This document shows, one piece after another, positions 5,960 through 22,599 of a stretch of DNA of 64,000 nucleotides. The stretch is from Octopus vulgaris (Eukaryota). The notes below the pieces were generated by a model. It worked only from the letters and a program-made list of their open reading frames with translations, was not told the DNA's origin and ran no database searches. The position numbers and the translations under genes are program-made. Positions within the stretch are counted from its first letter, which is position 1. The number at the start of each line of letters is the position of its first letter. The stretch lies in contig OX597821.1 in assembly GCA_951406725.2 (NCBI GenBank), positions 84,010,001 to 84,074,000 on the forward strand. Reading direction: 5' to 3'.

Positions 5960-6105
5960 AAAAACAAAAGACGAAGACAGGTGTATGAACAACAAGCAGG
6001 TGTATTAGTTTGACGCTCGGGAAAGTGAGAAAGTCTTTAACGTTTCGAACCTACGCTCTTCAGCAGAAAGGCATAACAGAAAATAAAGAGAGGGCATAAA
6101 AACTT
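5960..6105 (-). mobile_element. Short dispersed element with a minimal-HHR-like motif (6033-6072)
   Basis: CUUU-CUGCUGA-A-GAGC(GUAG)GUUC-GAAACGUU-AAAG; homologous to copies at 8100, 17965, 50730 and 53970. Confidence 0.6.
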
Positions 6106-18171: not shown

Positions 18172-18464
18172 TATATATATATATATACGTAGATATATAG
18201 ACGGAAACTGAAAGAAGCCTGTCGTATGTATATATGTGTCTGTGCATGCATTTGTTTGTGTGTCTGTGCTTGTCCCCCCCCCCCAACATCGCTTGACAAC
18301 CTATGCTGGTGTGTTTACGTCCCCGTCACAAAGCGGTTCGGTAAGAGAGACCGATAGAATAAGTCCTGGGGTCGATTTGCTCTACTAAAGGCGATGCTTC
18401 AGCATGGCTGCAGCCAAATTAGTGAAACAAATAGAAAAAGGATATATATATATGTATATATATA

Positions 18465-20387
18465 TAACATAAGGGACTAAAGCCATCTGAATATGGCTAG
18501 GGACAGGGCAGGGTGGTGGGGGTGTTACTGTTGCATTTAGCCCCAGGCGAACATCGACGTCACCAGAAAGGCCCGACACCGTCACGGTGTCCTTAACCTG
18601 CAAAGGGAGGTAATTCCCCGATGAAGCGGAAACCACACACGGACCATGGTTTCAAGGTGTATTGCTTATCGTCGGCGTGTGGTAGGCTTCCGCTTCCTCG
18701 ACGAATTCTCACTCTGCAGGATATTCATATATAGATTTTCAAGCAAAATACATTTGCTGATTTCGAAAATCTGTTCGAAAGCAATAATAATTCTCTAAAA
18801 GAGATATAGACAGTAACTGCTCGATAACATAAGGGACTAAAGCCATCTGAATATGGCTAGGGACAGGGAAGGGTGGTGGGGGTGTTACTGTTGCATTTAG
18901 CCCCAGGCGAACATCGACGTCACCAGAAAGGCCCGACACCGTCACGGTGTCCTTAACCTGCAAAGGGAGGTAATTCCCCGATGAAGCGGAAACCACACAC
19001 GGACCATGGTTTCAAGGTGTATTGCCTATCGTCGGCGTGTGGTAGGCTTCCGCTTCCTCGACGAATTCTCACTCTGCAGGATATTCATATATAGATTTTC
19101 AAGCAAAATACATTTGCTGATTTCGAAAATCTGTTTGAAAGCAATAATAATTCTCTAAAAGAGATATAGACAGTAACTGCTCGATAACATAAGGGACTAA
19201 AGCGATCTGAATATGGCTAGGGACAGGGCAGGGTGGTGGGGGTGTTACTGTTGCATTTAGCCCCAGGCGAACATCGACGTCACCAGAAAGGCCCGACACC
19301 GTCACGGTGTCCTTAACCTGCAAAGGGAGGTAATTCCCCGATGAAGCGGAAACCACACACGGACCATGGTTTCAAGGTGTATTGCCTATCGTCGGCGTGT
19401 GGTAGGCTTCCGCTTCCTCGACGAATTCTCACTCTGCAGGATATTCATATATAGATTTTCAAGCAAAATACATTTGCTGATTTCGAAAATCTGTTTGAAA
19501 GCAATAATAATTCTCTAAAAGAGATATAGACAGTAACTGCTCGATAACATAAGGGACTAAAGCCATCTGAATATGGCTAGGGACAGGGCAGGGTGGTGGG
19601 GGTGTTACTGTTGCATTTAGCCCCAGGCGAACATCGACGTCACCAGAAAGGCCCGACACCGTCACGGTGTCCTTAACCTGCAAAGGGAGGTAATTCCCCG
19701 ATGAAGCGGAAACCACACACGGACCATGGTTTCAAGGTGTATTGCCTATCGTCGGCGTGTGGTAGGCTTCCGCTTCCTCGACGAATTCTCACTCTGCAGG
19801 ATATTCATATATAGATTTTCAAGCAAAATACATTTGCTGATTTCGAAAATCTGTTTGAAAGCAATAATAATTCTCTAAAGAGATATAGACAGTAACTGCT
19901 CGATAACATAAAGGGACTACTGTTGCAAGCCAGGCGAACTGAATATGGCTAGGGACAGCGGCAGGGTGGTGCCTATCGGGGTGTTACTGTCACTGCATTT
20001 AGCCCCAGGCGAACATCGACGTCACCAGAAAGGCCCGACACCGTCACGGTGTCCTTAACCTGCAAAGGGAGGTAATTCCCCGATGAAGCGGAAACCACAC
20101 ACGGACCATGGTTTCAAGGTGTATTGCCTATCGTCGGCAATATAGACCTTGAAACCATGGTCCGTGTGTGGTTTCCGCTTCATCGGGGAATTACCTCTTT
20201 GCAGGTTAAGGACACCGTGACGGTGTCGGGCCTTTCTGGTGACGTCGATGTTCGCCGGGGCTAAATGCAACAGTAACACCCCCACTACCCCTTCCCTGTC
20301 CCTAGCCATATTCAGATGGCTTTAGTCCCTTATGTTATCGAGCAGTCGAGCGTTACTGTCTATATCTCTTTTAGAGAATTATTATTG

Positions 20388-20389
<2 letters not shown>
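18465..20389 (-). mobile_element. Retrozyme/PLE-pLTR-like array: about 4.6 tandem 360-bp monomers plus an inverted partial copy, flanked by (TA)n
   Basis: Exact 360-bp period (taacataagggactaa at 18465, 18825, 19185, 19545); one HHR per monomer; inversion at about 20138. Confidence 0.85.
18996..19041 (-). ncRNA. Type I hammerhead ribozyme in the 360-bp monomer (also 18636-18681, 19356-19401, 19716-19761, partial about 20097-20138)
   Basis: CACACG-CCGACGA-U-AGG(CAAUACA)CCU-U-GAAAC-CAUG-GUC^CGUGUG: 6-bp helix I, U4C core variant, palindromic helix III ACCAUGGU, GUC triplet. Confidence 0.8.
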
Positions 20390-20454
<65 letters not shown>

Positions 20455-20570
20455 GAGGGCATTATTATACATACATACCACACGCTAAGAGGGACAATTA
20501 GTCATTTCTACCAAAAAATTTTACTAATCCCACCGAATGCAATTTTTCAAAGTATGACATTTAAAAATAT

Positions 20571-20619
20571 AGACTTGTATCACCTGTGATTTCATACCTC
20601 TGTATTCATCAGCAAGCCT
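20571..20619 (-). ncRNA. Mirror copy of the canonical hammerhead
   Basis: Exact reverse complement of 20675-20723. Confidence 0.9.
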
Positions 20620-20674
20620 CAACGTATCATAAATAAACGACCCTGAGGTAGGGTCGTTTATTTATGATACGTTC

Positions 20675-20723
20675 AGGCTTGCTGATGAATACAGAGGTAT
20701 GAAATCACAGGTGATACAAGTCT
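20675..20723 (+). ncRNA. Canonical type I hammerhead ribozyme
   Basis: AGGCUUG-CUGAUGA-AUAC(AGAG)GUAU-GAAA-UCA(CAGG)UGA-UA^CAAGUCU. All core nucleotides and three helices are present; predicted cleavage after 20716. Confidence 0.9.
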
Positions 20724-20966
20724 ATATTTTTAAATGTCATACTTTGAAAAATTGCATTCGGTGGGATTAGTAAAATTTTTGGTAGAAATGACTAATTGTC
20801 CCTCTTAGCGTGTGGCATGTATGTATAATAATGCACTCTATATATAAATTAATATGTTCAATGAGAAAGAATTATTTTCGAAATTTTTTCTCTTATGAGG
20901 TCTTTCACGCTATCTACCTGATAATTTCTTGTTAAGTTTTCCTTATTAAGAAGTTGTCCTTAATTG

Positions 20967-21569
<603 letters not shown>

Positions 21570-22599
21570 GACGGGCTTCTTTCAGTTTCCGTCAACCAAA
21601 TCCACTCACAAGGCTTTGGTCGGCCTGACGCTATATTAGAAGATATCTGCCCAAGGTGCCACGCAGTGGGACTGAATCCGGAACCAAGTGGTTTGTAAGC
21701 AAGCTACTTACCACACAGCTATTCCTGCGCCTATCTCCAGAAAACTGGAAAACCCCTAAATCTGGGCCAGATCCGGTCCCAAGCTTGCTGGATATTTGAT
21801 CTGGTATCATATTTAGCAGTTAATATATAAATTTGTATTCTTTTGGCCTAACATTCGTCAACTCATGAAACTAAGATGAAATACGTTGGTATATTAGACA
21901 TTAGTGGAAGAAAACAGTCTACACAGTCAAGGTGGAGATCGGATTATAGGAGTAAGTGAAGGATTATTAGATATACAATTTGATTCATTTAGGGAGGGAG
22001 GGTTCGTATCGGGCCAGTAACCAATCAAAATCGTTATCGCTAACTTCGCGCGCCGAAGTGTACGTTATGCTAATAGCGTTCAAGGACGTCTATGCCGCAT
22101 GACACAACCCAGGCAGTTCTAAACAGTTGCTGCACCTTAATTTACAAATATATACACAACAGAGTACAACTCACTTCTGTGGTGAATCATTCACTTCACA
22201 CATACACACATTGCTCATATTCTTCATAAATAAAACCATAAAAACAGCATTTGCGGTTGGCTAGCAAATTTTCATCTATCAACAATCACGATTATAGCTT
22301 TGAAAAATTTCAAGATATAATTTTAACATTTTACATAAATTTGAATCCACGAACTTCTAAGCCTGGTTATTTTTGTAGATATTCTTCGAAGATGTGACTT
22401 AAACCTTTCACACGATTAGTTTAAATTTAAGACGGAAAATTTGCAGTTACTTATCTTTTATTTGTTTCGGTCATTGGACTGAGGTTATGCTGGGGACACC
22501 ACCTTAAAGGGTTTTAGTAAAACAAATCGCCGCTAGAACTTATCTTTTAAGCTTAGGGTTTATTCTGTCGGCCGAAGGTTGTCAAGCGGTGTGGCACTC

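Follow-up and report, generated by a model that had tools for sequence, protein, structure and literature searches.

Two groups of described elements resemble the DNA analysed here. The first comprises Penelope-like elements (PLEs) that carry an endonuclease. The accessible text of PMC3846280 describes inverted pLTRs, a tail on one pLTR and head-to-head palindromes, for which self-priming was proposed, and that of PMC8557442 generalises this anatomy of an inverted, 5′-truncated pLTR and reports microsatellite targets. In vitro work on the Anolis PLE PAc (Frangieh et al. 2024, PMC11167929) shows that the tail is delimited by a pair of RT start sites lying downstream of the hammerhead. Cleavage and extension take place on both strands of AT-rich targets, no strand difference in the RT start site is reported, and ribozyme cleavage is not needed. 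The step at which the inverted ends are formed is left open by the portions of this literature covered here. In Schistosoma, pairs of PLE-derived hammerheads occupy opposite strands at a distance of 100–700 bp and are predicted to be active as dimers (Cervera and de la Pena 2014, PMC4209133). The second group consists of the animal non-LTR retrozymes, which were defined by Cervera and de la Pena (2020, PMC7229834), with PLEs named as their likely drivers; vertebrate retrozymes have been linked to pLTRs (Li et al. 2026, bioRxiv 10.64898/2026.07.22.740005).

The window analysed here is a 64-kb stretch (G000:C8:84010001-84074000) of a 2.8-Gb genome, and the feature under study is a palindrome within it. 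This feature is very probably a single insertion of a dispersed, non-coding 459-bp non-LTR retrozyme, in which two 5′-truncated copies face each other head to head within a (TA)n tract, where the enzyme of a PLE is likely to have placed them. The family, its tandem period, its two fixed 3′ ends (sites A and B), the scattered 5′ starts, the (TA)n targets, the pairing of one A arm with one B arm and the lack of an ORF are all directly observed; we read the family as a retrozyme that is not autonomous and is mobilised by a PLE. With its PLE-type ends it belongs to an already described kind of element, of which it is a clean, young example bearing the footprints of a PLE insertion.

Like the animal retrozymes (PMC7229834; bioRxiv 10.64898/2026.07.22.740005), the 459-bp family is non-coding, has a tandem unit of a few hundred bases with one type I hammerhead per unit, occurs as dispersed monomers, dimers and partial copies, and coexists with PLEs. 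The likeness is suggested by sequence, and a parent pLTR was not found. In contrast to this family, the accessible text of both retrozyme papers describes neither head-to-head pairs nor two fixed 3′ ends, and the word "inverted" occurs zero times in that of PMC7229834. Those features are instead shared with the endonuclease-bearing PLE insertions (PMC3846280, PMC8557442), which have the same head-to-head junction, one-arm tail, AT-rich or microsatellite target and partial tandems. The family differs from them, as they are described there, in lacking an ORF, in its tail of about 120 nt rather than 30–40 nt, and in that its one-arm-per-end rule has been counted (35/37). PAc is likewise similar in its two tail-defining ends and AT-rich targets (PMC11167929); however, it is autonomous and shows no strand bias of starts in vitro, whereas the arms of the 459-bp family almost always use different sites. 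The close hammerheads on opposite strands and their predicted dimers recall the Schistosoma pairs, although the latter are minimal and lack helix III, while the hammerhead in the window has a near-palindromic helix III of 4 bp (PMC4209133). No paper on the 459-bp family was found in the literature searched, and repeat libraries or supplementary tables may already list it; the word "ribozyme" is absent from the accessible text of PMC13282606. The family supports the proposed but unproven link between PLEs and retrozymes outside vertebrates, and the points of most value are the counted one-arm-per-end rule, the long tail and a cross-family pair described below.

The head-to-head insertion and its family

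The palindrome is centred at position 20647 of the window, and its halves (20444-20644 and 20650-20849) differ by three substitutions and one indel over about 200 bp. The short inverted arm (20444..20644, minus strand) runs from unit position 259 to 3′ end site A and the long arm (20645..20968, plus strand) from unit position 254 to 3′ end site B, each continuing into (TA)n; the 5-nt palindrome spacer (20645-20649) is made of five further unit bases, the first five of the long arm. The initial annotation had bounded the element at 20451..20845. The palindrome it described is real, but the element is asymmetric, since the plus arm extends about 120 bp beyond the palindrome to 20968. This extension is the tail (20850..20968, plus strand), the roughly 120 nt between the two end sites, present on the long arm only, and it makes the element in the window an A+B head-to-head pair (short arm A, long arm B).

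The (TA)n target tract occupies 20389..20443 on the left, where it is shared with the end of a neighbouring 360-bp family, and 20968..21097 on the right. A TSD was unreadable within these (TA)n flanks. About 55 bp of (TA)n separate the element from the 360-bp array, close to the 60 bp first estimated, and the two units have no homology apart from matches of 11–13 nt, in keeping with the annotation of the two as unrelated.

A search with the right arm returned 1770 candidates at first look; scores were obtained for 40 of them, with identities of 96–100% at the top. The exact 36-nt hammerhead core has 113 matches in the genome, compared with 0 for a reversed control. A natural tandem at one locus (L020) has a period of 459 bp and units that are 99% identical, and same-strand cores stand 457–460 bp apart at 5 loci among the 100 exact cores listed; the copy in the window has one core per strand. 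Six-frame translation of the 459-bp unit is broken by stops and gives no open frame. The ORF with RT and GIY-YIG domains that marks an autonomous PLE is absent from the unit.

We mapped 78 distinct loci, 26 from the arm query and 12 plus 40 more fetched from the core-match list, with overlapping loci dropped; these loci were picked for holding a hammerhead or an arm, which leaves short and old copies under-represented. Across the 78 loci the 5′ starts are scattered over the whole unit. The 3′ ends fall into two classes, site A at unit position 7 (64 arm segments) and site B at position 130 (38 segments), about 120 nt apart once the TA tract is trimmed, and TA repeats follow 106 of the 115 arm ends of either class. 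Head-to-head pairs are present at 41 of the 78 loci. Thirty-five of these are A+B, one is A+A, one is B+B and four have an atypical end (p=5e-9 for 35/37). The 41 junctions comprise 21 overlaps, 7 blunt joins and 13 with inserted bases. Four single-arm loci (L006, L021, L061 and L097) do have a same-family partner arm that is too short or decayed to pass our thresholds. The window locus itself is an ordinary one among many copies of the family, and its palindrome is a by-product of insertion common to about half of the family's loci rather than a special two-ribozyme design.

The hammerhead motif and its predicted folding

Each arm carries the same 49-nt type I hammerhead motif, on the plus strand at 20675..20723 (predicted cut after A20716) and on the minus strand at 20571..20619 (predicted cut after A20578). 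These are the two motifs of the initial annotation, which had placed them head to head about 30 nt from the centre of symmetry; the measured distance is 28 nt. The motif has 7 bp in stem I, 4 bp in stem II and a near-palindromic stem III (AUCAC-AG-GUGAU). A scan of the 64 kb for type I hammerheads found these two matches and four variant matches in the 360-bp array. The motif had been called fully canonical. This holds for the catalytic core, in which the conserved type I positions C3-A9, G12-A15.1 and U16.1-H17 are intact, but not for the base of stem II, where the window subfamily has A-U at 10.1-11.1 instead of the usual, though not essential, G10.1-C11.1.

Three helices surround the core, with helix I open, and 98% of cells are paired in 14 haplotypes chosen from 73. 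In the commonest haplotypes among the 127 motifs extracted, variation in stem I is limited to A-U/G-U exchanges and the terminal pair; intact motifs are favoured in this set by the pattern used for extraction and by the way in which loci were chosen. In the 14 chosen haplotypes a two-sided change occurs at one pair alone, as one event, and 453 of 500 shuffles also reach one such pair. A sister subfamily, 84–92% identical to the window family and with 23 exact matches to its variant pattern, has a motif that differs only at the free core position 7, in loop 2 and at the 10.1-11.1 pair (A-U to G-C), which speaks for constraint on the ribozyme. Rfam gave no match at the gathering score anywhere in the window and no hammerhead model at E<=10 within 18300-21100. 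The matches it returned by E-value were hairpin and microsatellite matches and were rejected, as was a MIR9486 match (60.6 bits against a cut-off of 100 bits), which arises from the palindrome.

All fold energies given here are predictions (ViennaRNA) from models that leave out tertiary contacts. In three short contexts at 37 C the hammerhead fold of the monomer lies 4.1–5.6 kcal/mol above the ensemble, with a probability of at most 0.0014, and the favoured misfold pairs the core CUGAU with stem III. The fold z-score of the motif is 0.07. Forming the hammerhead is predicted to cost 4.7 kcal/mol in the whole plus arm, 6.9 in the minus arm and 1.9 above the ensemble in the sister subfamily. The cost rises to 87 kcal/mol in a read-through transcript (20438-20968), which agrees with the initial proposal that transcription across the whole palindrome would mask the ribozymes in dsRNA. 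An internal loop adjoining stem I may form in the predicted folds. For the dimer, the predicted minimum-energy fold is a cross-paired double hammerhead at -25.6 kcal/mol, compared with -20.4 kcal/mol (2 x -10.2) for two misfolded monomers. The ribozyme is therefore predicted to work in pairs rather than alone, which agrees with the model in which metazoan type I hammerheads act as dimers (PMC4209133). In tests of Xenopus hammerheads 1 of 9 dimers cleaved (bioRxiv 10.64898/2026.07.22.740005), so that activity of the motif in the window is not to be assumed. A look-up of public sequencing runs listed no RNA run for the sequence. Contigs of the 459-bp family occur in one sequencing run that we guessed to be RNA; these show neither transcription nor cleavage.

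Formation of the paired arms

Two further groups of loci bear on how the arms are paired. The sister subfamily has 8 head-to-head pairs in 14 loci, all 8 of them A+B. The 360-bp array, which adjoins the element in the window, represents a second young, dispersed retrozyme-like family with head-to-head pairs. Its copies are 99% identical and younger than those of the 459-bp family. In the window it consists of a tandem arm of 4.6 units (18464..20138, minus strand), with variant hammerhead motifs at 18675, 19035, 19395 and 19755, and an inverted arm (20142..20388, plus strand) that ends at the family's distal end site. Read in the minus-strand sense, its hammerhead has the core CCGACGA, with C at positions 4 and 7, a perfectly palindromic stem III and a GUC triplet. 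The family's two ends lie 44 nt apart in (TA)n, and the 16 loci examined include 10 pairs whose ends are both visible, 8 of which have one arm at each end. ATTGCT precedes the TA tract at the distal ends of both the 360-bp and the 459-bp families. One locus (L073:586-1715, G000:C7:119.72 Mb) combines the two: a 360-family arm ending at the distal site stands head to head with a 459-family arm ending at site A, each arm ending in (TA)n and the two joined via a 22-nt piece of the 360-bp unit. This is one case in 78, and no second cross-family pair was found in the 5′ flanks of 37 single-arm loci. The near-strict one-arm-per-end rule, which holds in both of these unrelated families as well as the sister subfamily, constrains, together with L073, the ways in which PLEs could form inverted ends, and these constraints can be put to the test.

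Of the 120 arms examined, 41 are longer than a single period, and 5′ starts within 5 nt of the cut site number 1 of 120 against 2.9 expected, in loci that were chosen for holding the ribozyme. Linear cleaved monomers are disfavoured as template, given the lack of a pile-up of starts at the cut site. Taken together, the long arms and the missing pile-up point to an uncleaved multimer or a circle, two templates that are not distinguishable here. Of 31 pairs, 24 have arms that resemble each other more than they do the median other copy and 7 do not, so most pairs derive from one event and one source.

Under the explanation that we favour, a PLE protein (RT plus GIY-YIG endonuclease) would bind multimeric or circular retrozyme RNA and nick both strands of a (TA)n site. 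One cDNA would be primed at site B from one strand and a second at site A from the other; both would extend toward the 5′ side of the RNA, halt at variable points and be joined, often via a few bases of microhomology. In the window both cDNAs would have halted 5 nt apart, just upstream of the hammerhead, and such halts would leave a palindrome that is nearly perfect and has a ribozyme on both strands. The job of the ribozyme is likely the cutting of multimers to monomers as a double hammerhead, in tandem copies elsewhere, and the copy in the window, with a single ribozyme per strand, is likely a dead end unable to release a monomer. It is possible, if doubtful, that a PLE enzyme pair primes the arms separately and in constant roles, one target strand being served at RNA site A and the other at site B, and that the arms are able to use two different RNA molecules. 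If so, L073 would be a fossil of such priming; it would show that one helper serves unrelated retrozymes and would count against an origin of PLE palindromes by self-priming. L073 would also be explained by a later insertion that deleted an earlier arm.

A tentative alternative concerns the second arm only and is otherwise a variant of the same explanation. The cDNA started at site B would fold back at its 3′ end and serve as its own template, and the endonuclease would resolve the hairpin at site A; the palindrome would then be the primary product, and asymmetric junctions would result from later deletions of the centre. The arms in the window fit such a fold-back, as the A arm of 208 lies within the B arm of 336 and the two start 5 nt apart. 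Near-symmetric junctions (within 12 nt), the window pair among them, are modestly enriched (6/41 against 2.2 expected, p=0.02), private variants are common to both arms, and self-priming was the proposal of PMC3846280. However, in 18 of 35 A+B pairs both arms are too short for one to have been templated by the other, unless the centre was later deleted, and L073 pairs arms from two unrelated families. A fold-back chimera arising in sequencing or assembly is far less probable still. Contigs from four public runs cover both arms and none is listed across the junction, a gap that proves nothing; against an artefact, the arms differ at 4 places, are unequal in length and each end at a family-specific site, and 41 of 78 loci are paired, mostly with offset starts, which is not expected from fold-back reads.

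It is unlikely that the locus holds an efficient stand-alone monomeric hammerhead on each strand, with a possible role in bidirectional cleavage or as a dsRNA switch. In its favour are the intact core, a 7-bp stem I and a 4-bp stem III that exceed the 1–2 bp typical of dimer-only metazoan hammerheads (PMC4209133), and the good cleavage of coral retrozyme monomers (PMC7229834). Weighing against this are the A-U pair at 10.1-11.1, the presence of the motif at 113 places and a geometry common to other loci (e.g. L042), as well as the fold predictions (a misfold favoured by 4–6 kcal/mol, the low probability and z-score of the hammerhead fold, and the favoured dimer). Given the predicted misfold and dimer, the window's motif is unsupported as the best candidate for an active monomeric ribozyme, as it had initially been ranked; monomer activity may still occur, as the models leave out tertiary contacts.

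PLEs and other hammerhead-like repeats in the genome

The relation to PLEs put forward in the initial annotation is borne out by the PLE-type anatomy of the insertion, but the parent PLE sought there was not found. Among 76 PLE loci (the best-scoring GIY-YIG loci, 36 + 40), none is an autonomous element sharing the 459-bp unit, and the unit matches no coding or terminal part of these PLEs, apart from places where the family itself has inserted independently and a single 59-nt match that is AT-rich (E=0.3). That match, to a young PLE, scores 52 against 33±4.7 in shuffles (1/300) and was picked after the fact. Three possible parents were rejected. A GIY-YIG fragment beside one copy leads to an abundant older PLE family, whose hammerhead is degenerate and which lacks homology to the unit; a relative of the unit, old and 74% identical, near a PLE fragment is a separate insertion; and the young intact PLE, found in a Pfam GIY-YIG search, has only the weak AT-rich match.

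The genome is rich in GIY-YIG PLEs, and intact RT+GIY-YIG elements that end in (TA)n are present. The intact 781-aa RT+GIY-YIG frame of one PLE family was found at 16 of the 148 places listed. Its young intact representative (L207:430-5672, G000:C16:20.83 Mb; also L214) has this frame, 456-bp terminal repeats and a (TA)n target, together with a separate upstream 479-aa frame that has no Pfam match above the cut-off. Its 3′ UTR contains internal tandem repeats, and its ends fail to line up with sites A or B. This PLE is a candidate helper for the 459-bp family. Its terminal repeat contains a minimal hammerhead-like motif (L207:5560-5610 and related loci), kept in older subfamilies, in which U and A replace C3 and G8. 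The two changes may compensate for each other, as a natural swap of the 3-8 pair; a hammerhead with U3-A8 can be active.

Three 3′ ends of the abundant older PLE family, with its degenerate hammerhead core, lie in the window near 6061 (minus strand), 8132 (plus strand) and 50846 (minus strand). More unrelated hammerhead-like repeats occur in the flanks at L134, L211, L188/L208, L181, L180 and L193, including one with a period of 465, one in an inverted repeat and one with a CCGACGA core, and the genome seems to hold many such families. Units beside inversion junctions contain scrambled small insertions or many microdeletions (window 19900-20000 and 20340-20355; L006, L002, L098), which may reflect either error-prone joining or assembly trouble at palindromes. 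To the right of the element, between (TA)n tracts, positions 21098-21510 and 21570-21730 are occupied by dispersed repeats with inverted copies elsewhere in the window, which have a SINE-like appearance.
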